Shown here in pieces: positions 1 through 21,337 of a DNA stretch of 64,000 nt (the stretch's first letter is position 1; every line of letters starts with the position of its first letter). Made by a program: the position numbers and the translations under genes. The stretch is from contig JBFRWN010000013.1 in the NCBI GenBank assembly GCA_051439605.1, positions 32,001 to 96,000 of the forward strand, in the 5' to 3' direction. Source of the DNA: Synechococcus sp. (GTDB taxonomy: Bacteria > Cyanobacteriota > Cyanobacteriia > Thermostichales > PCC-7336). The notes below the pieces were generated by a model. That model searched no databases and was not told the DNA's origin. It saw only the letters and a program-made list of their open reading frames with translations.

Positions 1-351
1 GCGGGCAACATAATCGGTAGATTTTCCTTTCTTCCGATCTCCAGTCTCATCAATACAGAGTATGAAGCTCTTACCTTGAAGAGCTTTCTTGAGTAACTCC
101 AAACGGTGATTCTGTAAAGATTTTAAATCCCATGGTGATTCAGTTAAAAAGTGATGCAATCCTTGAGCGTTTCGTAAGCCAACCGCCTGAGAAATAGCAG
201 GGAGGGTCTTACGTTTGAGCTCTGAGACCAGACCTATATGTAAATATTTAAAATGTTCAAAGCTTCTGACATCTGGAAACACTTCACGGTAAAGATCGCA
301 ATATTGGTCAATGCAGCCTACTGTCTAGGCTGCAGCTCTTGCTACACCCAT
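1..351 (-). pseudogene. IS701-family transposase, 5' part (runs off the window edge), with in-frame TAG at codon 9
   Basis: Manual translation from ATG at 351: MGVARAAA*TVGCIDQYCDLYREVFPDVRSFEHFKYLHIGLVSELKRKTLPAISQAVG...LHHFLTESPW...ILCIDETGDRKKGKSTDYVAR. This is typical of cyanobacterial IS701 transposases (IDETG-x-KKG motif). The TAG is at 325-327. Confidence 0.85.
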
Positions 352-550: not shown

Positions 551-1555
551 TTAGATCCGAGCCAAGTATCTATCCCTAATAGCATTGACACTAATTCCTT
601 TGAATTGCTCGCCAAACAAATTAGCTTTTGACCAAACTCTATTAGCATTGGCATACTTTATTTCAAGGCTTTTAATAAGTTTTACTGTATCCTTTTTAGA
701 GTTTTTTCTCTTGAGGTGAGTCCAATATCTCGCAGTATCAACGATGACAGATTTTATGGTTTCTAAATCTATAAATGCATTTATTTTTTCGGATAAACTT
801 TGGCTTCCAATCTGTTCACCAAATGCCTCCCAATATTTAGTCAGAAATATTTCTTCCTGCCTTTGTATATACCCAATCTTGTAAAGGTGAGAGGCGATAT
901 CGTACTCTAAGGGGACAAACTTAGCTAATTCCCAGTCAATCAGAATCAATTCCTTTCTCCCGGAAAAAATTGTATTTTTCCGATGAGCATCGCAATGGGC
1001 GAAGACCATGTCTGTATTGACATATTCGCCATGGATGCTATTCGGGATCAAGCTTTCTCGTGGAGGGAATGACAAGTCCCGGAATAGGTCTTCAAACTCA
1101 GCAAAAAAGCGATCGTACAAATCTAAAATGTGTTGCTTGACTGAATCAATAGTTATGGATGGCTGTTTGCTTTTTGCTGACAATTTCACATCCAGTTGGT
1201 GGATAGAAGCCATTTGCCTTGCCATTTTGGCAGGCACCCAATCGGGCAAAGGCTCAGGACGCGTATATGCATCCTCCAAAACGATTCCATCCATAAACTG
1301 ATGAACGGCAAACCCTTTCCCTTCGTAAATAAGACGAGGGGCATTGAAATTCAGTTCTTCAAGACATTTCAAAACTTCGCTTTCATCCAAATGCATCTCG
1401 TCCACAACAACAGCATCTGGATTCGGAACCCTGACTACATATTTCGTTCCGTCGTGTTCAACGATGTAGTTCGTATTGTAATAACCCTGCTTAACGGTGT
1501 GGTCCCAAGAAGCCGGAACCTGCAAAAACTCGTATACCCAATCAAAATTCGACAT
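551..1555 (-). CDS. APH/choline kinase-like phosphotransferase
   Basis: GYYNTNY-type loop, YVVRVP, Brenner motif HCDAHRKN and IDWE metal-binding motif. ATG at 1555 lies 7 nt after the MFS stop codon. Confidence 0.85.
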   Translation of the reverse strand: MSNFDWVYEFLQVPASWDHTVKQGYYNTNYIVEHDGTKYVVRVPNPDAVVVDEMHLDESEVLKCLEELNFNAPRLIYEGKGFAVHQFMDGIVLEDAYTRPEPLPDWVPAKMARQMASIHQLDVKLSAKSKQPSITIDSVKQHILDLYDRFFAEFEDLFRDLSFPPRESLIPNSIHGEYVNTDMVFAHCDAHRKNTIFSGRKELILIDWELAKFVPLEYDIASHLYKIGYIQRQEEIFLTKYWEAFGEQIGSQSLSEKINAFIDLETIKSVIVDTARYWTHLKRKNSKKDTVKLIKSLEIKYANANRVWSKANLFGEQFKGISVNAIRDRYLARI

Positions 1556-1562
1556 AGGGCAT

Positions 1563-2723
1563 TTACCGAAACTTTTGCTTCGCAACTCTAGCCAGCGGCT
1601 TCCAAAACAGCAGAGTCGTCGCCGAAGCGCACAAAAAAGGCAGCTGACTCAACGCCGGTAACAAAACAGTGGCCGTCACCAGACAAGTCCCGCCCATCTT
1701 AATCGCCACCTCCCTTAATGTAATCCAGCGCCGAAAGTCAGCCGAAGCCTTCGCCCGAGACATAAACCCCGAAAACATCGGCACTTCAAACAATGGACGC
1801 ACCAACCCGGCCCCCGCCGACAGCGAGAAAATCCAAATTGGACTGTAAGTCACCGCCCGCCCCAACCACAGCAGTCCGTAGATCGACAACGCGATCGCCG
1901 CCGGACGCCACCACCGCTTCAAATCCGTCAGCCTGCCAATCGCCAAATTCGAAACCACCACCCCCAACTTGATCGCACTCGCCGCAATTCCCACCTCAAT
2001 CAACCCAAGAGAATTCTGGAAGATATACAACGCCCAAAACACCTCCGCCGTATCCCAAATCCCCGTCAGCCCGTAGGAGTACAAAAACGTCGAGAACGAT
2101 GCCGCTGGCTGCAGTTGCTGCGGTTCTTCCCGAACGGGAACGCTCTCGACCCGTTCTAGCTCTTGGCGATCGCCAAATCCAGGCAAGTACAGCGAGGCGA
2201 TCGAAACCAGATAAATCCCTACCGCAATACTCGCAACCACCCCAATCCCTACGCGAGTCAGCAACACCCCACTCAGCACCGGCGCGATCGTCCCCCCCAC
2301 AATCGCCGCCACCCGAAACCGACTGACCGCCCTGCCAATCTTCGAAGTCGGAGCCTTTACAAACGCAAAATGCAGCGGCACCCAATAAAACGCATTGGCC
2401 GCAGCAGTGGTCAGCGCCAGCCCCGCCATCAACCGCCAATCCTGCCACCCGCTCGTCAGCAACGCCTGCGTCCCCAGCACTGGAATCAACCGCAGCAGCA
2501 AAGCCACAATCGGCCAGCGACAAATGCGCTCGTACAAGCTCAGATTCAGGAGCGATTGCAAGCAGTAATAGCTCAACAAAAAGGCAATACAAGCATTCAA
2601 AGACCCCGTCTGCTGGTAAATCAGCACGGGCACAAACACCTTCAGCAACCCATCGCCCAACGAATTCCAGAAGCGATGCAGGCATAGGTTTTGAATTGCA
2701 ATCTGTCGATCCACAGAACTCAC
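1563..2723 (-). CDS. MFS-type membrane transporter
   Basis: Many hydrophobic segments and an MFS motif-A-like IGRLTDLKRWWR. The probable GTG start at 2723 overlaps the STAND TGA (GTGA) and has a purine-rich RBS upstream. The ORF track extends the start to 2816. Confidence 0.8.
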   Translation of the reverse strand: MSSVDRQIAIQNLCLHRFWNSLGDGLLKVFVPVLIYQQTGSLNACIAFLLSYYCLQSLLNLSLYERICRWPIVALLLRLIPVLGTQALLTSGWQDWRLMAGLALTTAAANAFYWVPLHFAFVKAPTSKIGRAVSRFRVAAIVGGTIAPVLSGVLLTRVGIGVVASIAVGIYLVSIASLYLPGFGDRQELERVESVPVREEPQQLQPAASFSTFLYSYGLTGIWDTAEVFWALYIFQNSLGLIEVGIAASAIKLGVVVSNLAIGRLTDLKRWWRPAAIALSIYGLLWLGRAVTYSPIWIFSLSAGAGLVRPLFEVPMFSGFMSRAKASADFRRWITLREVAIKMGGTCLVTATVLLPALSQLPFLCASATTLLFWKPLARVAKQKFR

Positions 2724-5700
2724 TCCCCTTCCCCTCGGCTGCGGTCGTGCCGTTCTATCAGTTTTCGCATATTCGGAAAATTCTCCAGGTATGGAATCTG
2801 ACTGATGCGATCGCAACCCGCATAATCCGCTTCCCCCCCCAAAGCCCGAGCTGCCGAGATAGTCAGGTCGTAGGCCCGCAACCGCAACGAGGGATAAATT
2901 CGCTCCGATTTAAAGTACCGACTGGCCGCCAGCGCCGATTCCAGCGCCGTATCGAACAAGCCCAGCTGCAATGCAGCCTCCGAAATCAACATCCGACTGC
3001 GAGCCATCCCCGACCCGTACCCCACCTCGCCCAGCAAGCGTTCAGCCTCTCGCCCCAGCTCCAAAGCCCGCTCCGCACAATCGTTCATCAGACTCAACTT
3101 GGCCTCGATGATGGTACTCTTCCCCAGCTCCAAACTCGCCCCACAGTCGCGGCCTCGCTGGCGAATCTCCCTCAACAGATCGGGAACCACATCTGCGTTC
3201 AGGTAAAGCTCCACCTGAGCCAGACTGTTTAGCGCCTCCACAATCTTCTGCGGTCGCCGCACCTGCCGAAACAACTTCAAACTCCGCTTGAAAGACTGCC
3301 TCGCAGCAGCAAAATCCCCCGTGATGTAATCCACCTGCCCAAACAACCGCAGGATCGTCGCCTGAAATCTCCTGTCTCGCTTCTCCTCCGCGATCGACTG
3401 CAGTTCGGTCAACCGCGATCGCGCCGCCGGAATTTTCCCCACCACGTATTCCAAATCCCCCAACGCACACTGACTCTGCATCCAAGTCTTAAACTCGGAC
3501 TCCTGCGAGAGATGGGCCAGCGCCGATTGATAGCTGCGCATAGCTGGCGCGTGCTTACCGCTTACCCTCAATCCCTCCGCCAGATGGTAGTGGGCCATCC
3601 CCTTCAATTCCGTCGGCAACTGCTTCTCCTTCAACAACTGCCCCGATAGCTCGATCAGGCGATCGGGCTGCGATGCCAGTGAACTCTGCTTCAGTCCCCA
3701 AGCCAACTGAATCGACCGCAGATTGAGATAGCTCCCCGAGCAAAACTCAACCACTCGCTCCGCCACACGATCGACCTTGCATTCCAGCAAGTCAAACCCA
3801 ATCCCCATTAGCGTAGATGTAGCAATCCAATCCTCGTGACTCCCCAAACACCTCAGGAACTGCTCCACCTTTGAAGACAGCGAGTCCCGATCCAAAACCA
3901 AATTCACCACCGTCTCCACCGTCCCCCGCTTAAACAGCTCCGGCCTGCCAACAATCGCCTCTGTCAGCTGCTCCCCAGCTTCAGCCTGAATCAGGTGATA
4001 GGGCATGTACCGCTCTAAGTAGTCGTTCCAAACGTGGCGATCGCTCGGCGAATAATCCTCCCACTCGGCAGCTAGGGTTGCGGCGATCAACTGGTTGCCC
4101 CGTTTCGCAGAAATGTAATAGTCGGACCCCCTCACCTCCTGTCCCGTCAGCCAATCCATCAACGACTTGTGAAAGAAGGTATAGCTGCGCTGCCCATCCG
4201 CTCCCTCCCGCTCGTGCAGGTACGCAGACAGTTCCCGCAACACCGGATACAGTTCGTCCTCTAAATCGAGATGCGTCACTGTGGCCAGTTGTACGTCGGT
4301 CAGCGGTTCCCGAGCCGCCGCGATCGCCTGCAGTACCTTCTTGGCCGTTGCGAAGCGCTGTCGGTCTGGAAATTGCCTCTCGAAGTATTCCAGATAGAGA
4401 CCCGACAATCCGGGGGGCAGCAAATCGAGTCGTTCGAAACTGTATCGCCGGTGCTCGATGCCCTCCAGCACCTGCTGGACGTACAGGATGTTGCCGTTCC
4501 CTTTTTGGCGCAGAGTAGCTTTCACAAACTCAAGGGTCTTTCCGCTCTGTTCCAGCAGGACGGACAATATCGAGCCTTCGATTCGACTCTCGATATACTC
4601 ATCGATATCCCGCAGATTGCGCTCGTCACTAGCCCGAATCTCCGCCATGCCTGAACGACTGAAGCGCAGCATCACATCTGCATCGCAGCGAGTTGTGACC
4701 AACACCCTTAACCAATCGGGAATGCGATTCAACCGAGACGTCAGTATCCCTGCTATCGTCCGATTAACGCTGTCCCTAAACCGAGTCACCGACTCGTCCA
4801 GTCCGTCAATGATGATGTAGCGGATATCCCCTTCACCAGGACACGCGGAAGTCAAGCAATTCAGCAAGCCATTCTCAAACGCCCCCGCCGGATTGGTCTC
4901 GCAATTTTCCTCGCTCAACGCCTCCTCAACCGCCGGATTTGCCAGACATGCAGCATATCCATCCAGTTGCTTGGCGATCGCCCCAGCCAGACTGCGCACA
5001 AATCGTCCCGGCGATAGCGTTTGCTCGTTATCCGCCTGGCAGAAGTGATAGGCCAGAACGCGATCTCCAGCATTTCGATGCACGAACTCAGCCGCCAGAG
5101 CTGTCTTCCCTGATCCGGGATCCCCCGTCAGCAAAAGCACCTGCTCGCCCGATTGAATAAACCGATTTTCGATCTCCTCAAACAGCCACTCCCGCCCGGT
5201 AAAGAACCGCCGCTTTTCCGACAAGAACGCCGAAAAGCTCAACGGCTGTAGGGACTGCTCCCACCAACCACTAGAAGAGGCGCGATCCTCTGCCGTCCTT
5301 TCCCTCAATCTCCGAGGCTTCTGGGAGGTCTGCGGCCACTGCTTTTGAATCTCCTCCAGATTCCTCTGCTTCTCTCGATAGGGATACCAGAGCCTCAACG
5401 TAAAATGCGGAGAATTGTTGGTATGGATGCGATTGTCATCCAACACCTTCAATGTATGTTCCAAATGGAAGAGCGCGTCGTTCACCTGAGTGCGATCGCG
5501 AAACGTCCTCTCCCCCTTCGATCCGCTCTCAACCCTTTCCTCGTATCTCCCCGCCAGCCCAATCAGCGCCGACATGGAGGCATTCACCACCAAACACCGT
5601 TCGTCGGAAGATCGCACATCGACCTTTTTGCCCAAAAAACTCCGCAGCTCCCCAGCCAAATTCTCGTTTGCATACGCCAGCAAAGCACCGACCAGCACTT

Positions 5701-5752
5701 CAACCCGTCGTTTCGGGACATCCCCATAGGTGCGTCTATCCTGGCGTGGCAT
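2720..5752 (-). CDS. STAND (NACHT-like) NTPase with N-terminal domain of unknown function and C-terminal TPR-like repeats
   Basis: FTGREWL pre-P-loop, Walker A GDPGSGKT, YHFC, Walker B IIIDGLDE, VLVTTR sensor, FFHKSL winged-helix motif, and a TPR-like helical C-terminus (AHYHLAEGLR, ALGDLEY, ALNSLAQV). Confidence 0.88.
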   Translation of the reverse strand: MPRQDRRTYGDVPKRRVEVLVGALLAYANENLAGELRSFLGKKVDVRSSDERCLVVNASMSALIGLAGRYEERVESGSKGERTFRDRTQVNDALFHLEHTLKVLDDNRIHTNNSPHFTLRLWYPYREKQRNLEEIQKQWPQTSQKPRRLRERTAEDRASSSGWWEQSLQPLSFSAFLSEKRRFFTGREWLFEEIENRFIQSGEQVLLLTGDPGSGKTALAAEFVHRNAGDRVLAYHFCQADNEQTLSPGRFVRSLAGAIAKQLDGYAACLANPAVEEALSEENCETNPAGAFENGLLNCLTSACPGEGDIRYIIIDGLDESVTRFRDSVNRTIAGILTSRLNRIPDWLRVLVTTRCDADVMLRFSRSGMAEIRASDERNLRDIDEYIESRIEGSILSVLLEQSGKTLEFVKATLRQKGNGNILYVQQVLEGIEHRRYSFERLDLLPPGLSGLYLEYFERQFPDRQRFATAKKVLQAIAAAREPLTDVQLATVTHLDLEDELYPVLRELSAYLHEREGADGQRSYTFFHKSLMDWLTGQEVRGSDYYISAKRGNQLIAATLAAEWEDYSPSDRHVWNDYLERYMPYHLIQAEAGEQLTEAIVGRPELFKRGTVETVVNLVLDRDSLSSKVEQFLRCLGSHEDWIATSTLMGIGFDLLECKVDRVAERVVEFCSGSYLNLRSIQLAWGLKQSSLASQPDRLIELSGQLLKEKQLPTELKGMAHYHLAEGLRVSGKHAPAMRSYQSALAHLSQESEFKTWMQSQCALGDLEYVVGKIPAARSRLTELQSIAEEKRDRRFQATILRLFGQVDYITGDFAAARQSFKRSLKLFRQVRRPQKIVEALNSLAQVELYLNADVVPDLLREIRQRGRDCGASLELGKSTIIEAKLSLMNDCAERALELGREAERLLGEVGYGSGMARSRMLISEAALQLGLFDTALESALAASRYFKSERIYPSLRLRAYDLTISAARALGGEADYAGCDRISQIPYLENFPNMRKLIERHDRSRGEGE

Positions 5753-6003: not shown

Positions 6004-6180
6004 CTAGGACTTCTCTTTCCCCTTCGACCCAGAGGTTTCCTTTTTGTCCACCCACTCCTGAATGAAGTCCACCAACACGGAATTCATACTGATGCTCTCC
6101 AGAGCGCACAGAGATTTAAACCGAGCCCTGAGAGATTCGGGTAGATAGACCTTAATCGAAGTGTTTTTATCTGCAGTCAA
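6004..6180 (-). CDS. Small ribbon-helix-helix (ParG/CopG-like) DNA-binding protein, 58 aa, absent from the ORF track
   Basis: Manual translation from TTG: MTADKNTSIKVYLPESLRARFKSLCALESISMNSVLVDFIQEWVDKKETSGSKGKEKS*. It has a beta-strand (IKVYL) plus two helices (LRARFK..C..E..SM..VL..FI..WV), the ParG-like RHH pattern. Confidence 0.75.
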   Translation of the reverse strand: MTADKNTSIKVYLPESLRARFKSLCALESISMNSVLVDFIQEWVDKKETSGSKGKEKS

Positions 6181-6578: not shown

Positions 6579-7037
6579 ATGAGATCGCAATACTGTAGTA
6601 AGCATCCACCTTCCCCACGTTCCTCCGATCTGGACCGAGGAGTGACGCTAGATGCTCTTCGCTTTTGGTATCTCTCCGCAGAATTCATGGGTCGTGAGCT
6701 GAACTATCTTCTGGAAATCAACTCCATCGTTAGTCACTTTCTCCAAGGCTCCGACCTCAGGCCTGAAGAACGCTCCGACATGAAATCCTTGATTGACGAA
6801 GCCCTAAAGCGATGGCTGCAATGCGCGCGATCGCTAGATCGACCAGAACACCACATTCAAGAAATCCTGCAGCTCAAGCGAGCTAGCGCCAATTCGGATT
6901 TCAGCCGGTTGAACAAGGAGGCATTCATCTCCCTCAAGCGGGATATCTCGGACGAGTTTTCCAAGTACGCGGGCAAGCGACTAAACAGCCGCTCCGCCCA
7001 ACGAAAAGTCTGCAAAAAACGCCATATCAACCTCTAA
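6579..7037 (+). CDS. Hypothetical protein of the integrative element
   Basis: 152-aa helical-looking ORF, co-oriented with and directly upstream of the primase-helicase. No motif recognised. Confidence 0.55.
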   Translation: MRSQYCSKHPPSPRSSDLDRGVTLDALRFWYLSAEFMGRELNYLLEINSIVSHFLQGSDLRPEERSDMKSLIDEALKRWLQCARSLDRPEHHIQEILQLKRASANSDFSRLNKEAFISLKRDISDEFSKYAGKRLNSRSAQRKVCKKRHINL

Positions 7038-7151: not shown

Positions 7152-9665
7152 ATGAATCACTCCCATCAAAAGTTCGACATCTGCCAACACATTCAGTTCG
7201 ATTCCAAAGGCCGTGCCATCTGCCCCAATTGCGCCCTCGACAAAGGCGATAGCTATCGCAAGAAAAATCTCTCCCTCGTCCCTGGCACGGACGGAGCCTA
7301 CAAGTGCCATCGCGGCTGCACCCCCGAACAAATCCGAGAGGCGCTAGGCATACGAGCAACCTGCACGGTCCCTATCGCCTTCGCTCAACCTTCCACTGCA
7401 TCGAACTCGGTAACCATCTCAGCTCGGCAAGTCGAACTCGCCCACCGAAAGCTACTCAGTCGCAACGGTCCTGCCAGAGCTTGGCTACGCGATCACGGCA
7501 TCCCCGACGAAGCCATCACCCGCTACCAACTGGGCATCGAACCCAAACGAGTTGGCAAACAAAAGCTCTGGGCTATTTCAATCCCCATCCCCACTGGCAA
7601 CGGCCAATACTATCGCAAGCTTCGAATTTCCCCGTGGCTTTCCCCAGAGCAACTTCCCACCAACTACCAACCCTGGAGCCAATACGGAGTCCCCGCCACA
7701 GTTTTCTTCACCCACAACCCACCAACCGCAACCCAAACCTACCTGTGCGAAGGCGAGTGGGATGCCATCGCCCTCGGCTGGCAGTTGCGCCATCAATCAG
7801 ACATAGCCGTCGCGACCTTCACCTGCGGCTGCGGCACAGTGCCTCATAAAGAAGTCTTGGATCGATTACCCGGCCAGGTCACCATCTTCTACGACCGCAA
7901 CGACAAACCCCTCAAAAACGGCACCATCCCAGGCGAAGCAGGAGCCCAGAAAGTCGCAGCAGCTCTGTGGGAACGCGCCCGAATTGCCCAAGTCCCGCAT
8001 CGCCCAGAACATTCCCACATCCACGGTTGGGACGTCTCCGATGCCCTCAACGCTGGCTTCACAAATGATAATTTCGCCAAAGCTGCTGCTCAAGCCGTAT
8101 CGCCCAGCTCTCAGCAGAAAAAGGTTGTACGTGCCTCAAATCCGCTGCGATCGCGCCTGGTCACCAACGATACGCTGCTGGATCGAGCTCCCGACTACAC
8201 GGAATGGCTCGTCCCCAACCTGCTTACGGCCAACGAACTCTTTCTATTAGCAGCCTCCCCCCGTGCAGGAAAATCTCTCCTTGCCATGACCCTGGCCAAC
8301 AGCGTCGCCAGCGGCCAGAAATTCCTCGACCGCCCTGTCACCCAAGGCTCGGTCCTCTACATCCGCTGCGAGGACAGCGAAACCAAAATCAAAGAGCGAG
8401 AAATTGCCCAAGGTTGGAGCAGGGGCCTACCCGTCTACTGGCTCGATCGCTTCAAGCTCTCCGAGCTCGACCAACTCAGAGAAATCGCCGAAGACATCGA
8501 ACCCCGCCTCATCGTTCTCGACACCCTCAGCCGCATTCGCGACGACGGTATCTCAGAATCCTCCGCAGAAATGTCCCGCTGTCTCGAGCCCCTGCAAGAG
8601 ATGGCCGAAGAACTCAATTGCTGCATCCTGCTCGTCCACCACACCGGCAAAGTCAAGCTCGACAATGCCGACAAGATCGATGTGTTCGAGACCATCCGAG
8701 GCAGCTCGGCCATAAGAGCCGTCTGTCGCGGCACTTGGGTGCTAGCAGCCGACGATAACCGCTCTTTTCGCCTCTGTGTCGAGCACGGCTACGGCAGAGA
8801 AGATTTGAAAATTCTTTTGGACTCCTCCACACTGCGATGGCGATCGTTGGGTCACTGGCAGCCAGCCGCAGTCAACGTCACCCAAGCCGAACAAGTCCTC
8901 GCCTACCTCAATCAAGCAGGCGAAGGCACGATAGATGAAATCCATGCAGCCACGGGCTTACCCAAGCGATCGCTCTACGTCGTCCTCTCCCGCCTCCACG
9001 CAGAGGACATGGTCAGCAAAGCAGGCAGCCGTCGCCGCATTGTTTATAAGCGCTTGGTCAAGCAACTTCAGCAGTTAGACGAAAGCCTGAGTAGCTCAAA
9101 CCAAGACTGGGCAAGCGATGTAGGCGAAAGTAGAGTTATCTCCGAGCCGCTAGAAAACCAAACAAACAGTGATTGTTTAATCCAACCCGCCAGGGAGCTG
9201 GAATTTGTTAGTTCAACGGCAAATTGGGCTTCAATCCCATATGGAGAAAGGGATACAGCTATTCAACAAGTATCTAACAACCATCTAACAAGCCCCAATT
9301 TGTTAGATGAAATTGACTCGGGCGATCTAAGTAACACAAAACCTGTACTTCTCCCCCCACCTCGAAGATCGCCAGTGAAACCTCAATTTGATAGAGGCGA
9401 CTCCGTGGAATTTTTCGACGGTGAAAGTTGGCTTTCTGCTATCTATTGCAGACCGCTCGGTAATTTCTACTTCTCTCCCGTCACCAAACAGCTTGAGGAG
9501 GCCCATCTAATTAGAACAAGAGGGGTTATTGATAGTGACGACTTACCTCGCAAGGTTGCAACCAGCGCGCTGCGTCCTCGACGGCAGAGCGTGACGGAAG
9601 CTCCGAATATTGCCAACAAGCCGAAACAGCAAAACCTTGAAATCGATATTCTGCGGAGGAGGTAG
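7152..9665 (+). CDS. Primase-helicase replication protein (Zn finger + TOPRIM + RecA-like AAA_25 + wHTH)
   Basis: CPNC...C-HRGC zinc finger, TOPRIM LCEGEWDA and YDRND/WDVSD, Walker A ASPRAGKS, Walker B LIVLDT, LLVHHTGK and RGSSA motifs. Confidence 0.9.
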   Translation: MNHSHQKFDICQHIQFDSKGRAICPNCALDKGDSYRKKNLSLVPGTDGAYKCHRGCTPEQIREALGIRATCTVPIAFAQPSTASNSVTISARQVELAHRKLLSRNGPARAWLRDHGIPDEAITRYQLGIEPKRVGKQKLWAISIPIPTGNGQYYRKLRISPWLSPEQLPTNYQPWSQYGVPATVFFTHNPPTATQTYLCEGEWDAIALGWQLRHQSDIAVATFTCGCGTVPHKEVLDRLPGQVTIFYDRNDKPLKNGTIPGEAGAQKVAAALWERARIAQVPHRPEHSHIHGWDVSDALNAGFTNDNFAKAAAQAVSPSSQQKKVVRASNPLRSRLVTNDTLLDRAPDYTEWLVPNLLTANELFLLAASPRAGKSLLAMTLANSVASGQKFLDRPVTQGSVLYIRCEDSETKIKEREIAQGWSRGLPVYWLDRFKLSELDQLREIAEDIEPRLIVLDTLSRIRDDGISESSAEMSRCLEPLQEMAEELNCCILLVHHTGKVKLDNADKIDVFETIRGSSAIRAVCRGTWVLAADDNRSFRLCVEHGYGREDLKILLDSSTLRWRSLGHWQPAAVNVTQAEQVLAYLNQAGEGTIDEIHAATGLPKRSLYVVLSRLHAEDMVSKAGSRRRIVYKRLVKQLQQLDESLSSSNQDWASDVGESRVISEPLENQTNSDCLIQPARELEFVSSTANWASIPYGERDTAIQQVSNNHLTSPNLLDEIDSGDLSNTKPVLLPPPRRSPVKPQFDRGDSVEFFDGESWLSAIYCRPLGNFYFSPVTKQLEEAHLIRTRGVIDSDDLPRKVATSALRPRRQSVTEAPNIANKPKQQNLEIDILRRR

Positions 9666-11148: not shown

Positions 11149-11221
11149 AGCTGGTGACAGGACTTGAACCTGCGACCGGCTGATTACAAATCAGCTGCTC
11201 TACCAACTGAGCTACACCAGC
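11149..11221 (-). tRNA. tRNA-Thr (TGT)
   Basis: Reverse complement is GCTGGTGTAGCTCAGTTGGTAGAGCAGCTGATTTGTAATCAGCCGGTCGCAGGTTCAAGTCCTGTCACCAGCT. Acceptor stem, D arm, anticodon arm GCTGA-TTTGTAA-TCAGC and TTC T-loop are present. CCA is not encoded. Confidence 0.97.
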
Positions 11222-12150: not shown

Positions 12151-13287
12151 CAGGAGTTACGCATTGACAAAAACAGTTAAACATGGGCCAGTTGGAGGTT
12201 TGGCTGAAACTGCTGAACAATGAACTGGCGAACCGTCTGCAAATGTAAAGTCCACTGCAACTGGTAGAGATTGTCGTATTGACCGTTGGAATAAGCCAGC
12301 GATAGTTCACAAAAAGCTCGTAGGCAGCAAAACACATGCGTACCGATCGCCGCTGCGATCCGAACTCGAAAGCGAGTCAGACCACACAGTTGTTTGAGTG
12401 CTCGATGGAAACACTCAATCCCCCAGTGCAATTGTCGGAGTTCCTCAAAAGCTTCGAAACTGAACGCCTCCAGTTCTGCAGCAGTCGGACACCAAACGAG
12501 GTAGTAGCGCAACACTCCGTTTTTGAAGGATTGACTAAAAACCTTGACAGGCCCGATCCCCTTGAGGTGAACCAACAATCCTTGAGCTGGGATGGTCAGA
12601 GTCTGCACTTGGACATAAGGTTTTCCATCCACCGATACGAGTCGGTTTTTGCCAATTCCCATCAGAACCGTCAGGTTCTGGTCTTTCAGAAACCGTAAAT
12701 TCTGGCGACTGGCATACCAAGCATCAGTGGTGATGCTGGCTGGAACTAAGCCCCAAGCGAGCAATTCAGCCACCATTTCGCGAAAATAGTCGTTCTTGCT
12801 TTTCTCCTCCCGTTTGTCATAAAGCCGATAGTTCACTGGCACTTGGACACCGGTCGGGTCAGTGTAGTACAGCGTAATCAAGGGAATGCCTCGTAGCACC
12901 CGGCGCTCTTTGTTGGACCAGTAATAGCCAACTAATTCTGTCGACTCCACCTGAGAATAAGGCTTCTCGATCAAGGTGTCATCGCCACTAAGTACCCCCC
13001 TTTTAGTTCAATCGAAGGTAAGACTGCTTCGAAGAGATCCTTGGGTTCGTAAGTCTCTCGCACCAGAAAACGATTGACACTGTCGTGAGAAACCTCGTGG
13101 TCAAATACCGTGGCGAGGCGGTTGCAGCCACTATGTTTGGGCTCTGCCAATAAGAATGCTGTGTAGATATCAATAGTGCATTTGGCAGTCGATGGCTTCG
13201 TCAGTTCTCTCACTGGCAATTCGTGAAGGAAGGCAGCTTGAATTATCTCACCCACAGAGCTACTCTTCTGTCAATGCGTAACTCCTG
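12151..13287 (-). mobile_element. IS701-family insertion sequence
   Basis: Perfect 19-bp terminal IRs CAGGAGTTACGCATTGACA (12151-12169 and 13269-13287). The 5-bp target duplication GTACT is at 12146-12150 and 13288-13292. Confidence 0.93.
12177..13255 (-). pseudogene. IS701-family DDE transposase split by a -1 frameshift
   Basis: Two overlapping ORFs, 12971-13255 (SHDSVNRFL) and 12177-12974 (TTDAWYAS, HWGIECFHRALKQLCG), join at an AAAAGGGGGG run near 12995-13004. Confidence 0.8.
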
Positions 13288-17049: not shown

Positions 17050-17791
17050 CCTCTGTCTTGAGCAAAACGACGCAATGGCGCACGCTGTCAGAAAGGGGGG
17101 TATGGAACGCGTCCACCTCGGCAATTTCTCCCCCCAGAGTCTCTGCTGCCTCTGCAACCATTGCCTCTTCCTCCAAAGTCCAGTGGCCGCGATAGAGGAT
17201 TGCCCTACCGCCAATTTTCAACAAGGGCAGACTGTATTCGGTGCATACTGCGGCTGGACCAATAGCCCGCAATACTGCCACATCAAACCCCTCCCGCCGG
17301 GGAAATAGTTCCACTCGAGAGGCAAAGCCCACTGCATTAGTCAGCCCCATGCGGGAAATGGCCTGCTCGATAAATGCCACTTTGCGTTTGGTGGAGTCCA
17401 AGAGGGTGACCGACCATTGGGGAAAAACCGTTGCCGCCGGTAAGCCAGGGAAGCCAGCCCCCGAACCAATATCAACCATTTCAAGCGGAATGCCGCATAG
17501 GGCTTCCCAAGGACCCAAACTGAGTAGACCGCGCAAAGAATCCCACAGGTGCTTCTCCCAAAAGTCTTGGGGAGAGGTGAGGCGGGTCAGATTCTGTTGC
17601 TGGTTACCCAAAATCACCGCTTCGTAAAGCTTTTCGAAACGATGAAGGGCTTGTTCGTCCGGCTGGCATCCTAACTCTGCCATCCAATCGCGAGATCGCA
17701 GCAATTCGGCCCAAGCCTGACATTGGGGGACGGCATCTGCAGGCAGGCGATCGGGTAGTGTCAGGGGGGAAGTATGGCGGGATTTAGACAT
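16982..17791 (-). CDS. rsmG: 16S rRNA m7G527 methyltransferase
   Basis: NLTR, KHLWDSL, DIGSGAGFPG, LLDSTKRK, C-terminal TP..FPR.PG. Confidence 0.93.
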   Translation of the reverse strand: MSKSRHTSPLTLPDRLPADAVPQCQAWAELLRSRDWMAELGCQPDEQALHRFEKLYEAVILGNQQQNLTRLTSPQDFWEKHLWDSLRGLLSLGPWEALCGIPLEMVDIGSGAGFPGLPAATVFPQWSVTLLDSTKRKVAFIEQAISRMGLTNAVGFASRVELFPRREGFDVAVLRAIGPAAVCTEYSLPLLKIGGRAILYRGHWTLEEEAMVAEAAETLGGEIAEVDAFHTPLSDSVRHCVVLLKTEATPEAFPRSPGAAARHPLGGGS

Positions 17792-17907
17792 GGGCTCGAA
17801 ATTCTTAGACCTCCACTGTAGCCGCATCCACTCGAAATCGCGGCCTCAGATACGATCCCCGAAGGGTACAATATCCCTGCTAAGACAGATTTTATAGAGA
17901 TATTTTT

Positions 17908-18372
17908 ATGGGCATTACTCTTACTGCTGAGGATACGCAATTTGATGTAGAGCTGCTCGGAGATGTCCTGCCAGGTTCATCAGATATCAAAGTAGCTGCC
18001 ACCAACAACCAAACTCTGAAACTGGCAGTGGGTACCGCCGTAACTCTGCGAGCTGACGAACCTGTAGGTGGAGATTACACCGTTACTTTGGCGTTGGCCC
18101 CTGCAGCTCCCCGCGGTTGGAGACTGTACTTGAGCAAGGTCGCTGGCGGAGCTACCCCGGTAGCTGTCAATCCTGCCTCCGCCTCTACAGAAGGTAGCTC
18201 GGCAGATAATACCGGCAAAGTCTTCGAGATCAAATTCGTGTCTGCAGGCACGAGCCCGATGGTGCGTACGAGCGTGCAAACTCTTCGGGTGCCCTTCTCC
18301 CGCATGTCCAGCGAAGTTTCCCGCATTACCCGGTCTGGCAGCAAGATTGTCAGTATCACCGAAATCGTTTAG
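17908..18372 (+). CDS. Protein with a C-terminal CpcD/ApcC-like phycobilisome linker domain
   Basis: The C-terminus KVFEIKF...RTS.QT.RVPFSRMSSEV.RI.RSGSKIVSIT matches the CpcD/ApcC capping domain. The ~80-aa N-terminal part is not recognised. Confidence 0.75.
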   Translation: MGITLTAEDTQFDVELLGDVLPGSSDIKVAATNNQTLKLAVGTAVTLRADEPVGGDYTVTLALAPAAPRGWRLYLSKVAGGATPVAVNPASASTEGSSADNTGKVFEIKFVSAGTSPMVRTSVQTLRVPFSRMSSEVSRITRSGSKIVSITEIV

Positions 18373-18570
18373 CTTTCAGTCCTGCTATCGGTTTCTGGGT
18401 CAGTTTGGGTCGAATTCTCAGGTGATGCTCCACTGATACCAGGTGCAAATCATAGTTGATAGTTGCCGTTCATTTCTTTAACCGCTAGGTCTTGGCTGGA
18501 GTTTTCAGGACTTAGCGGTTTTGCAGTTGAAAACTCTAGATATCGCACGTATGGTGGGTTGTAATTGCCG

Positions 18571-19407
18571 ATGAACGCTACCCCTGTTGTGTCCCAGTTA
18601 AGCCTCCAGCGGGTATTGGGGTTTCCGGTACATGTTCCCAGTTCCGCTGTTCCCAATGCACCAGCTCCCCATGCTTCTCCCTCCCGCAATTCAGATTCCC
18701 ATCAAGCGGGTGTATCCGCCGACCCTTTTGCGGCTTATCTGGCTTGGTTGGGCGATCGCGTGCGTAGCGGTGTTGGCACCCACACTATCACCATCAATGC
18801 CGAAATGATTATGCTGGGACGTCAAGATCGGCAGTTTGCCACCGCCTTGCAGGAGGCGGATTTGCTTGCGCCCGATGGAGCGGGAGTCGTCTTAGCCCTC
18901 AAGTTGCAGGGCATCCATATCCAGCGCTGCCCCGGCATTGAGTTGTCAGAACGGCTAGTAGCCATGGCTGCTAGTGAGGGATGGTCCATTTACCTCTTGG
19001 GGGGGGGACCGGAGGTATCCGATGCAGTATTAGCACAGTGGAAGCAGCGTTACCCCGATCTTGCCCTAGAAGGACACAACGGCTATTTTGATGCCGATGA
19101 AGAACGGGTCATTTGCGATCGCATCGCCACCTTAAAACCTCAACTCGTGTTCGTCGGAACGGGGTCCCCGCGGCAGGAACATTGGATTCGCCAGCACCGT
19201 CACTTAGTTCCAGAGGCTACGTGGATTGGTATTGGCGGCAGTTTAGATATTTGGGCCGGAACGAAAGAACGAGCCCCACAATGGTTCCGCGATCGCCATT
19301 TGGAATGGCTGTATCGCCTCTACAAAGAGCCTTGGCGGTGGCGCAGGATGTTGGCCTTGCCTCAGTTTGCTTGGTACGTGTTGGTGAATGGAGTAGTTCG
19401 TCAATGA
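18571..19407 (+). CDS. WecB/TagA/CpsF family glycosyltransferase
   Basis: TINAE, PDGAGVV, GIEL, G.GSPRQE.WI, GIGGSLD..AG..ERAP, LEWLYRL.KEPWRW.R. Confidence 0.93.
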   Translation: MNATPVVSQLSLQRVLGFPVHVPSSAVPNAPAPHASPSRNSDSHQAGVSADPFAAYLAWLGDRVRSGVGTHTITINAEMIMLGRQDRQFATALQEADLLAPDGAGVVLALKLQGIHIQRCPGIELSERLVAMAASEGWSIYLLGGGPEVSDAVLAQWKQRYPDLALEGHNGYFDADEERVICDRIATLKPQLVFVGTGSPRQEHWIRQHRHLVPEATWIGIGGSLDIWAGTKERAPQWFRDRHLEWLYRLYKEPWRWRRMLALPQFAWYVLVNGVVRQ

Positions 19408-20201
19408 TTCAAAGTCCTTCCCGTCGGGCGGCATCCAGCCGCTCTGCTGTGTCACTTGCAGCCCCTTCTTCAGGGGTACCCAGGTACACATCTGCAGTGC
19501 CCCAAAAAACTGTTGTGAGCCTGCAACAGGTTACGAAGCTTTACGACCCTGACATTGTGGTGCTGGATAACGTCAATCTGTCTGTAAAGTCTAGAGAATT
19601 TGTATTTGTTACGGGGGCATCGGGGGCTGGCAAATCAACGTTGCTGCGACTGCTTTACGGTGCAGAATCCATTACCAGCGGTCAAGTAACGGTAGCAGAT
19701 GTTAACTTGAGTCGCCTGCGCAGGCGATCGCTGGCCATGATGCGGCGAAGAATTGGCGTCGTATTTCAGGATTACAAACTGCTACCCAGCCGCACCGTTG
19801 CAGAGAACGTCGCGTTTGTTTTGCGGGCGCAGGGACTTTCCCGTCAAGAGGTAAAACGGCGCTTGGCCCCTGCCCTGAAGATGGTCGGACTTTTAGATAA
19901 AGCCGAACGGTTTCCAAACGAGCTGTCGGGGGGGGAACAGCAGCGGGTGAGCTTGGCGCGGGCGATCGTCAATACACCTCCGTTGCTGCTGGCGGATGAA
20001 CCTACGGGGAACCTAGATCCTGAAAATTCACGCTTGGTTTTACAGATTTTGGAGCGCCTCAATTCCTTTGGGGTAACCATCATCATGAGCACTCACGATC
20101 GCGGGTTGATTACCCACTCCCAAAATCGCCGTATCCATCTAGAAAACGGTATCCTTTCCGAGCAAACTGCAGGCCTGTCCCGCTCCACTTCCGCGGCGTA
20201 A
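19404..20201 (+). CDS. ftsE: Cell division ABC ATPase FtsE
   Basis: GASGAGKST, RRRIGVVFQDYKLL, LSGGEQQR, LLADEPTGNLD. ATGA overlap with the upstream gene; followed by ftsX. Confidence 0.93.
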   Translation: MIQSPSRRAASSRSAVSLAAPSSGVPRYTSAVPQKTVVSLQQVTKLYDPDIVVLDNVNLSVKSREFVFVTGASGAGKSTLLRLLYGAESITSGQVTVADVNLSRLRRRSLAMMRRRIGVVFQDYKLLPSRTVAENVAFVLRAQGLSRQEVKRRLAPALKMVGLLDKAERFPNELSGGEQQRVSLARAIVNTPPLLLADEPTGNLDPENSRLVLQILERLNSFGVTIIMSTHDRGLITHSQNRRIHLENGILSEQTAGLSRSTSAA

Positions 20202-20407
20202 TGTCTGAGGTCGCGAGGGCTATGCGTAACGCCATACGAGAGAAATGGTCTGCAAGCGTAACGTCCTGTAACTATTGGGATGGCGAATAGACTTACCCTA
20301 CATATACTGGTTCACGTTGAGACTTGTCTCGAACAATGACTAGATGTAGGGAATGGTCCCCTGACAGCCAGTCTAGATAGCGAGCAACCACAAGCGAGGG
20401 TTACACC

Positions 20408-21337
20408 GTGACCGTTCAAACAGGATTCTTTACCGGTATTGCCCGTTTTTTCAACAAGATTGACTATCTGTTGCGGGAAACGCTGTTGGGGTTGCGCAGA
20501 GGGGGATGGCTGAACTGGGCGGCCATCAGCACGCTGATGGTGTTGCTGTTTTTAGTTGGCATCAGCCTGCAACTGTCTTGGGGACTTGAAAACACGTTGG
20601 ACTCTCTGGGCACCCAGGTTGAAATTTCCGTATTTTTAGAGCCAGAGGTCACTGCCGAGTCTCTTCAGCCAACCATCTCTAGTCTGCCTGGAGTGGCCGA
20701 GACGAGCGCAATCCCCAAAGAGGATGCCTTTAACGAGCTTCTGCTAGCAATGGGGGAGGATAACCCCGAGCAAACCGCCGCCGATTTGGGTAACAATCCT
20801 CTGGTAGACAGCTTTCGAGTGCAAGTGAATTCCACCGAGCAACTGGATGAAGTGGCTCAGGTCCTGCAGGGATTGACGGGGGTTGACGAAGTGTATTACG
20901 GCAGCGAAGTGGTTAGCCGTCTGGGGCAACTGCAAGACGGCTTGGGACTGGGCACGATCGCGATTACGGGAGGGCTGACCCTAACGACTATTGCCGTGAT
21001 CACCACTACCATCCGCCTCATCGTGATGGCCCGCCGACGTGAAATAGAGGTGATGGCACTGGTGGGGGCCACCTCCACCTGGATTTACATGCCGTTTATT
21101 TTGCAGGGGGTGTTTTTTGGCATTGTGGGGGCGATTGCCGCTTGGGGGCTGGTGTTGGGGTCCCAGAAGTTAATGGTGGATGTATTGGCTAATATGTTGG
21201 CCATGCCTTTTTTAAGTATCTCAAGCGCGTCCTCGGAATCTGTTGTGGGGATTCTGCCGCTGATTTTGCTGGGAATTGGCACGTTGCTGGGGGCGACAGG
21301 TAGCCTGTTTGCTGTCAGAAAAACAGCAATTCGATAG
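20408..21337 (+). CDS. ftsX: Cell division permease FtsX
   Basis: Four-TM topology, NNPL.DSF, TIRL...ARRREIEVM.LVGAT..WI..PF.LQG. Confidence 0.93.
   Translation: MTVQTGFFTGIARFFNKIDYLLRETLLGLRRGGWLNWAAISTLMVLLFLVGISLQLSWGLENTLDSLGTQVEISVFLEPEVTAESLQPTISSLPGVAETSAIPKEDAFNELLLAMGEDNPEQTAADLGNNPLVDSFRVQVNSTEQLDEVAQVLQGLTGVDEVYYGSEVVSRLGQLQDGLGLGTIAITGGLTLTTIAVITTTIRLIVMARRREIEVMALVGATSTWIYMPFILQGVFFGIVGAIAAWGLVLGSQKLMVDVLANMLAMPFLSISSASSESVVGILPLILLGIGTLLGATGSLFAVRKTAIR

Follow-up and report, generated by a model that had tools for sequence, protein, structure and literature searches.

A recurring module of a STAND-TPR protein and an APH-fold kinase, with an optional MFS transporter, on a putative integrative element of Synechococcus sp.

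Bacterial Avs proteins (Avs1-21) and NACHT proteins combine a variable N-terminal module, a STAND NTPase and a tetratricopeptide repeat (TPR) sensor, according to the available parts of Lee 2026 (PMC13581612) and of Kibby et al. (10.1101/2022.07.19.500537), the latter describing variation in the effector domains of the NACHT proteins. A protein of this architecture is encoded by Synechococcus sp. within the window, the whole stretch of 64,000 nucleotides analysed here (contig JBFRWN010000013.1, positions 32,001 to 96,000; C13:32001-96000 in our labelling), as the first gene of a minus-strand trio that continues with a major facilitator superfamily (MFS) transporter and a kinase of the aminoglycoside phosphotransferase (APH)/choline kinase fold. 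Its likeness to the Avs and NACHT proteins extends to the swapping of effectors among relatives and to a site on a mobile element or beside restriction-modification (R-M) genes. It differs in that an APH-fold kinase is coupled with its sensor, whereas the Avs families in the accessible part of Lee 2026 bind phage proteins. A term search of the main text of that paper, so far as available, found no mention of an APH-fold kinase, and APH, phosphotransferase, kinase and EAD4 had no match in seven of its supplementary files; three larger files, outside the search, may classify the STAND clade.

In EAD-coupled conflict systems, EAD4 is a non-enzymatic adaptor and a few active APH kinases occur among the effectors (Kaur 2020, PMC7159879; likewise Kaur 2021, PMC8195603; available parts of both). 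The Synechococcus locus resembles these systems in its N-terminal EAD4, in the second EAD4 protein of the genome and in having an APH-like kinase, which is an occasional effector there, but in the second EAD4 protein the fusion partner is another NACHT protein rather than an enzyme effector, and the same parts of Kaur 2020 and 2021 contain no STAND-TPR-APH pairing. No MoxR-vWA, GAP1 or EACC1 core was found among the open reading frames (ORFs) scanned near the trio, which are part of those of the element, no genome-wide search for these cores having been made. MalT and the PH0952-type STAND-TPR proteins (1HZ4, 8BOB, 6MFV) also join a STAND NTPase to a helical-solenoid sensor. MalT senses maltotriose and has a C-terminal DNA-binding domain; in contrast, the TPR is the last part of the window STAND protein, in whose family TIR or CHAT domains occur. 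No LuxR-type C-terminal DNA-binding domain was matched by Pfam at E up to 0.1, the protein ending in helical repeats. A more distant parallel is the import of muramyl dipeptide by SLC15A, its phosphorylation by NAGK and the response of NOD2 to the phosphorylated form (review PMC10585062, available part). The gene types of the trio map onto this transporter, kinase and STAND receptor by analogy without homology. The sensor of NOD2 consists of leucine-rich repeats, and NAGK does not have the APH fold. The first-pass annotation, made from the sequence alone, knew of no described system of such composition; likewise, no STAND-TPR-APH kinase pairing was found in the literature searched, which covered few subscription papers, and no NCBIfam or PADLOC family covers the STAND protein, the transporter or the kinase at a meaningful score.

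The genes and domains of the trio and its probable regulator are as follows, in window positions:

5752-2720, minus strand: STAND NTPase of 1010 aa, with EAD4, NPHP3_N/NACHT-like NTPase, TANC1-like lid plus winged helix-turn-helix, and TPR solenoid in that order
5333..5725, minus strand: EAD4 domain of the STAND protein, residues 10-140, non-enzymatic (Pfam PF19959, 64.4 bits, cut-off 27)
4688..5191, minus strand: NTPase core of the STAND protein, residues 188-355 (Walker A GDPGSGKT, Walker B IIIDGLDE)
2738..3955, minus strand: TPR sensor solenoid of the STAND protein, approximately residues 600-1005 (from the model and family-invariant polar residues)
GTG 2723 to TAA 1563, minus strand: MFS transporter of 386 aa, the variable third gene (Pfam MFS_1, E 1e-9)
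ATG 1555 to 551, minus strand: APH/choline-kinase-fold kinase of 334 aa (Pfam APH, E 1e-20, 74.7 bits)
6004..6180, minus strand: ParG/RHH-like protein of 58 aa, a probable regulator upstream of the STAND gene (Pfam matches below threshold)

The three minus-strand ORFs are present as first annotated, and so are their junctions: the STAND stop and MFS start overlap as GTGA (2723-2720), and exactly seven nucleotides (1562-1556) lie between the MFS stop and the kinase ATG. A contig of a sequencing run from another study spans the STAND-MFS junction with 17 differences in 355 bases; scans for promoter-like and terminator-like sites gave results at chance level. The Walker A motif of the STAND protein and the HCDAHRKN and DWE motifs of the kinase are intact. 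The G+C content at third codon positions (GC3) is 0.42 in the kinase gene versus 0.68 in the STAND and MFS genes.

The first gene product belongs to the STAND NTPase superfamily. Pfam matches NPHP3_N (residues 188-355, E 4e-18), NACHT (30 bits, cut-off 26.7), TPR_12, HTH_TANC1 and, below cut-off, AAA_lid_TANC1, and the best Foldseek match of its AlphaFold2 model (mean pLDDT 82.4, the EAD4 part being unreliable) is 6MFV, a STAND protein with a TPR sensor (E 1.5e-9), with Apaf-1, Avs3 and MalT also matched; the earlier identification as a STAND protein with a TPR sensor is borne out by both. The third gene product belongs to the APH/choline kinase superfamily by its fold and its HxDxxxxN and DxE metal-binding motifs. 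The 58-aa protein matches ParG (E 0.0014) and RHH_5 (E 0.0086), both below cut-off, and an RHH_5 gene (E 2e-10) also precedes a frameshifted EAD4-STAND gene on an Acaryochloris plasmid.

The STAND-TPR protein and the kinase almost certainly constitute a real module that recurs in cyanobacteria-like, Bacillota and actinobacterial sequences. In a set of 1.84 billion representatives, a profile of the kinase had 809 matches (E up to 0.001), of which 150 are listed, 148 of them new. Among these 148 listed matches, 37 proteins are at least 500 aa long, and 29 of the 37 carry the TPR region of the window STAND protein directly before the kinase. Because TPR profiles cross-react (15 control TPR proteins reached E 1e-6 to 5e-14), a probe of the distal TPR (residues 862-965) was used, which scored 17-72 bits on the 29 fusions and at most 13.8 bits on the 15 controls. 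Five fusions begin with a TIR domain (TIR_2) and have the layout TIR-NTPase-TPR-kinase, and many others have the layout AAA_16-TPR-kinase, one cluster of these including Thermomonospora catenispora. The NTPase profile fits seven of the 29, the rest, some of them fragments, having E above 0.001 or no score. Between TPR and kinase, the 26 fusions measured have a linker of 34-57 aa, and the HxDxHxxN and DWE motifs are kept in all 29 fused kinases.

Fused and free kinases are interleaved in a tree of 149 of 156 kinase domains, seven short ones having been dropped. Distance matrices of TPR and kinase are correlated (Mantel rho 0.89, 0/2000 permutations) over 30 systems, namely 26 fusions and four split pairs, one pair inferred from equal contig sizes and three short fusions excluded; the agreement is partly trivial, since all but four of the systems are fusions and related sequences have a common history, and kinship inflates rho. 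Three split cyanobacteria-like pairs cluster with the same fusions in the TPR tree and in the kinase tree.

Gene neighbourhoods outside the window also contain the pair. A search with the MFS alignment covered 185,579 genomes and identified three loci, all in Paenibacillus (L008, L009 and L010). At L010, in Paenibacillus sp. NEAU-GSW1, all three genes are present in the order kinase-STAND-MFS, different from that of the window, and are related to the window genes at 29% identity for the kinase (E 2e-28), 22.6% over 749 aa for the STAND protein (E 1e-17) and 38% for the transporter. This trio is preceded by a dynamin pair and followed by a type I R-M system. The three homologues therefore co-occur elsewhere: the association recurs across phyla, with the trio syntenic in Paenibacillus, so that the refuting condition set with the first-pass annotation, a trio that is never syntenic in other genomes, does not hold. 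A kinase scan of JGI metagenomes yielded one locus, L012, in which a STAND gene is overlapped by a kinase gene and followed by a Gfo/Idh/MocA oxidoreductase gene, with no MFS gene on the 4.6-kb contig, which starts inside the STAND gene. The GC3 gap between kinase and STAND is not peculiar to the window copy, because it is also seen in L012 (0.29 versus 0.44). Indirect support for pairing comes from equal contig sizes: all three members of STAND cluster P0011 are on contigs of the same size as those of kinase cluster P0036, four of seven members of EAD4-STAND cluster P0013 share a contig size with four of five members of kinase cluster P0037, and MFS P0005 and kinase P0032 are each on a contig of 32,547 bases. 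Relatives are present on Acaryochloris and Nostoc plasmids.

The module is rare. A scan of 400 further genomes from the window's phylum, with strict E cut-offs (1e-15, 1e-60 and 1e-25 for MFS, STAND and kinase, respectively) and few candidates per genome scored, detected none of the three genes. Searches for the kinase in 390 further genomes from the phylum of the Paenibacillus strain and in 73 from its genus were likewise negative; no relative was found in IMG/VR or among GenBank phages, and none of the MFS on plasmids.

Several observations weigh against an obligate pairing. The TPR is absent from eight of the 37 long kinase proteins among the matches listed, and the 15 controls of the distal probe were weak matches of the same query rather than random picks. 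All four actinobacterial plasmid loci that were opened have a kinase of the same profile with no such STAND gene within 8-10 kb, and the EAD4-STAND gene of the Acaryochloris plasmid, a frameshifted copy, has no kinase nearby.

No Avs or bacterial NACHT model covers the window STAND protein, which in PADLOC (a library of 2023 that lacks newer families) matches only STAND_TPR (E 1e-4, residues 175-358) and, more weakly, P-loop models. In the Paenibacillus protein, the NTPase region (residues 345-676) matches PADLOC Avs1b at E 3e-15, that model having 1924 positions.

What is conserved is the STAND-TPR protein with the kinase, and the MFS transporter is a variable, optional third gene. A fixed three-gene system, as first envisaged, is contradicted by the adjacent STAND and kinase genes without MFS in L012, by the fusions elsewhere, and by the MFS gene standing alone in two of the three genome loci (L008 and L009), with no STAND or kinase gene within 10 kb.

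Related kinases also occur in other settings. On Streptomyces plasmids (L020-L022), a more distant kinase branch repeatedly has a winged-helix regulator and a HAD hydrolase as neighbours, but no STAND gene. The kinase profile also matches very long multidomain proteins (P0117, P0130, P0167 and P0158) with MFS, papain-fold toxin, DUF2332 or WXG100-like domains, the MFS domain being in the same chain as the kinase in P0117 and P0130; the kinase is therefore used in other conflict-type proteins. A STAND protein of a Priestia plasmid was excluded as a relative: its match to the actinobacterial fusions is confined to the NTPase, and it lacks both the TPR subtype and the kinase.

The N-terminal modules of the family are interchangeable, as in NLR-like receptors: EAD4 (in the window, P0013 and Acaryochloris), CHAT (P0012), TIR (five fusions) or none. 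The TIR fusions and the CHAT protein show that a conventional effector and the kinase coexist. An N-terminal domain of about 300 aa is shared by P0014 (residues 1-290) and the Paenibacillus STAND protein (L010:6591-7490), in unnamed Atlas clusters at 0.91; the label HEPN was rejected for it, since its RNxxx(x)H motif, spotted by inspection, came with no Pfam match and no named Atlas cluster. The first-pass annotation saw no recognisable nuclease, TIR or SIR2 effector in the window STAND protein; the N-terminal EAD4 module, which is non-enzymatic, had been overlooked, as had the 58-aa RHH gene upstream. There are two EAD4 matches in the genome, the second being an EAD4-NACHT protein on contig C42 (L005, C42:991-4368), which was read to residue 637 and is divergent from a TROVE (Ro60-like) gene. 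In the low-confidence model of the window EAD4 (pLDDT about 40-55), the order helix-strand-helix-helix-strand is winged-helix-like by eye; the label was not supported by a five-sequence profile searched against the PDB, of which the best match (E 0.09) was an unrelated fold.

Structural matches of the TPR solenoid include APC5 (Z 29.6), APPBP2 (Z 27.6), MalT domain III (Z 24.7, third, with rmsd 4.6 over 333 aligned residues), Rap and AimR; the TPR Atlas search gave generic TPR clusters. MalT domain III, Rap and AimR are ligand-enclosing sensors. Eight polar or aromatic positions of the TPR are near-invariant (R729, D766, R802, E875, K878, Y912, R918 and Y953); in 36 sequences with 14-43% identity to the window protein, R729 is kept in 35, D766 in 36, R/K802 in 35, E875 in 33 and K878 in 36. 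In the model, the invariant residues occupy alternate helices or the ends of these, where they may form a conserved binding groove that has several basic residues and would suit a phosphorylated ligand, or possibly a protein partner. The kinase model (pLDDT 92.3) matches choline kinase (Z 20.9), homoserine kinase, amicoumacin kinase and APHs at 9-18% identity, and because none of these stands out, the substrate cannot be named from the fold. Identity to the solved enzymes listed is 13-18%, and against the NCBIfam models of named APH-fold enzymes (APH(3'), thiamine kinase, GntI, homoserine kinase) the best score was 35.9 bits, the cut-off being 299. Residues H187, D189, N194 and D207 are invariant in 76 kinase sequences. 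A complex prediction for the TPR (600-1005) and the kinase, run without controls, scored 0.00.

The tentatively preferred account, held at slightly less than even probability, is that the kinase acts upstream of the sensor and makes a phosphorylated ligand that the TPR senses, while the MFS transporter moves the precursor. The kinase would phosphorylate a small molecule, the product would bind the Arg/Lys-rich TPR groove, and the ligand-bound STAND protein would exchange nucleotide and oligomerise. Output would come from the N-terminal module, which is TIR or caspase-like CHAT in relatives and here EAD4, putatively an adaptor or DNA-binding module. The transporter, or in its place the Gfo/Idh/MocA oxidoreductase of L012, may supply, convert or clear the molecule. 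This account is favoured because the kinase is at the sensor end, accompanies the TPR subtype in combination with different NTPase types and persists in proteins that already bear a TIR domain, and because the third genes, a transporter and an oxidoreductase, handle small molecules. A more specific version, doubtful as it stands and modelled on the NOD2 pathway, is that the MFS transporter imports a danger-associated small molecule (released, for example, by lysed neighbours or a competitor), which the kinase would phosphorylate and trap, and that the TPR would read the phosphorylated form and fire the TIR, caspase-like or EAD4 output.

A defence or conflict role of the module is somewhat probable. 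The defence or sensing role first proposed fits the TIR and CHAT relatives and the Paenibacillus locus beside type I R-M and dynamin genes, whereas the PADLOC matches in the window are weak and generic. The window copy on its integrative element and the Paenibacillus copy are the only two intact loci with enough flank, too small a number to gauge enrichment near defence genes. The suggestion that the transporter and kinase stand in for a missing effector is not supported in that form: TIR-bearing relatives keep a catalytically intact kinase at the sensor end, which argues against a kinase and transporter that simply replace the effector.

Placing the kinase upstream meets some resistance from the same data. 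APC5 and APPBP2, the two best solenoid matches, bind proteins or peptides; that the conserved TPR residues face the groove is an expectation from TPR architecture; and the actinobacterial-type fusions begin with AAA_16 at about residue 16, without an N-terminal module, so that the kinase is their only other enzyme. APH-related small-molecule kinases, moreover, are among the effectors of MoxR-vWA conflict systems (Kaur 2021, PMC8195603, available part). The last two points would favour a kinase that is the output, the idea of the first-pass annotation, as would the non-enzymatic EAD4 of the window copy: the TPR would sense a phage or stress cue, the STAND protein would oligomerise and turn the kinase on, the kinase would phosphorylate an essential metabolite or an incoming toxin, and the MFS transporter would export or deplete. 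Such an arrangement is unlikely, considering that five fusions already have TIR, that the kinase tracks the TPR subtype across differing NTPase types, and that it invariably lies on the C-terminal side of the TPR, in contrast to STAND effectors, which are usually at the N-terminus (Lee 2026, PMC13581612, available part).

It is quite unlikely that the locus is a MalT-like transcription switch rather than an immune system, with a STAND protein that senses a metabolite or antibiotic and an EAD4 that binds DNA and controls a detoxification or catabolic operon (kinase, MFS, oxidoreductase). The helix order of EAD4 in the low-confidence model recalls by eye a winged helix, the N-terminus of P0228 is one that we take to be an XRE-like helix-turn-helix although Pfam has no match to it, MalT domain III ranks third among the solenoid matches, the partner genes are metabolic in type, and an RHH gene is upstream. 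However, the TIR and CHAT N-termini of relatives and the R-M and dynamin genes adjoining the Paenibacillus trio are poorly accommodated, the EAD4 profile found no winged helix in the PDB, and EAD4 is treated as an adaptor in the available part of Kaur 2020 (PMC7159879).

A kinase that acts on protein is distinctly improbable. It would phosphorylate the STAND protein or a peptide, or would be a guarded bait, the TPR being tripped when an invader modifies or binds the kinase. The short, constant linker of the fusions is consistent with this, as are the top TPR matches APC5 and APPBP2 and the presence of LxmK, YihE, CcrZ and fructosamine-3-kinase, peptide or protein kinases of APH fold, among the 50 fold matches listed. 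The highest fold matches are nevertheless small-molecule kinases, if by few Z units, and a transporter or oxidoreductase as third gene would be left unexplained. That three unrelated genes were gathered by chance as cargo of a mobile element is highly improbable and is already refuted for the STAND protein and kinase: the lower GC3 of the kinase than of STAND and MFS and the solitary MFS genes at two of three genome loci speak for it, but L010 and L012, the 29 fusions, the congruent trees and the kinase GC3 below that of STAND in L012 too speak against it.

The remaining features of the element in the window are the following:

11149-11221, minus strand: tRNA-Thr(TGT), the integration site, with a 49-bp stretch over its 3' end repeated on contig C33
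9966..11048, minus strand: tyrosine recombinase (integrase) of the element (Pfam)
7152..9665, plus strand: primase/helicase-like replication protein (AAA_25) of the element (Pfam)
6579..7037, plus strand: ORF of 152 aa, of no known family, cargo or backbone of the element (ORF list, Pfam)
1..282, minus strand: start of a DDE_5 transposase gene that continues below the window, between the trio and a YcaO-GNAT cluster

The carrier of the trio is read as a putative integrative conjugative element of at least 44 kb, interrupted by an assembly gap. An exact 49-bp copy of the tRNA-Thr 3' end is at C33:1080-1128, between a nucleotidyltransferase-HepT pair and ordinary genes. Lower on contig C13 are genes for a TrwC relaxase and a type IV coupling protein. 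Together with the tRNA gene and integrase, these agree with the early view of the trio as cargo of a tRNA-integrated element. At the far end of the element, adjoining the attachment-site copy, the pair consists of a nucleotidyltransferase and a HepT-like RNase (L004:124-617, C33). A second STAND protein of the element, nSTAND1-WD40 (1253 aa), follows an ORF of 139 aa (L002:7901-12098, C13). On the host side of the tRNA gene, a DDE transposase is split in two ORFs (window 12177-13255).

Just below the window, on the minus strand of the same element, is a YcaO cluster (C13:27878-30234; L001:3878-6234) with about 39% G+C, comprising an ORF of 74 aa, a YcaO protein (409 aa) and a GNAT acetyltransferase (289 aa) and resembling a small RiPP-type cluster. 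The interval between kinase and YcaO (L001:6653-8282) contains a group II intron maturase fragment (GIIM) and the DDE_5 transposase, both apparently broken. A functional link of the trio to the YcaO-GNAT genes was rejected on account of this transposase and intron fragment between them, and no YcaO gene was seen in L010 or L012. In Paenibacillus, the trio and type I R-M genes are flanked by the dynamin-like GTPase pair (L010:372-4243) and a 1168-aa DUF4145/sigma70_r4 protein (17635-21141).

These comparisons, made at the level of sequence and predicted structure, indicate a cross-phylum STAND-TPR-kinase module of NLR-like kind, with an optional MFS transporter. The immune STAND proteins in the available part of Lee 2026 sense phage proteins, and a STAND sensor that is inherited, and often fused, with an intact kinase of small-molecule type points to a different input or output. 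A single 1290-aa TIR-STAND-TPR-kinase protein, which combines receptor, kinase and a measurable NADase read-out, would be a compact test case. If the kinase is the output, the STAND effector would be at the C-terminal end, an arrangement of which no description was found in the literature searched. If the kinase makes the ligand, the module would be a metabolite-sensing NLR circuit in bacteria, parallel to mammalian NOD2, and the import-phosphorylate-sense circuit, if true, would reproduce the logic of SLC15A, NAGK and NOD2 independently in bacteria.

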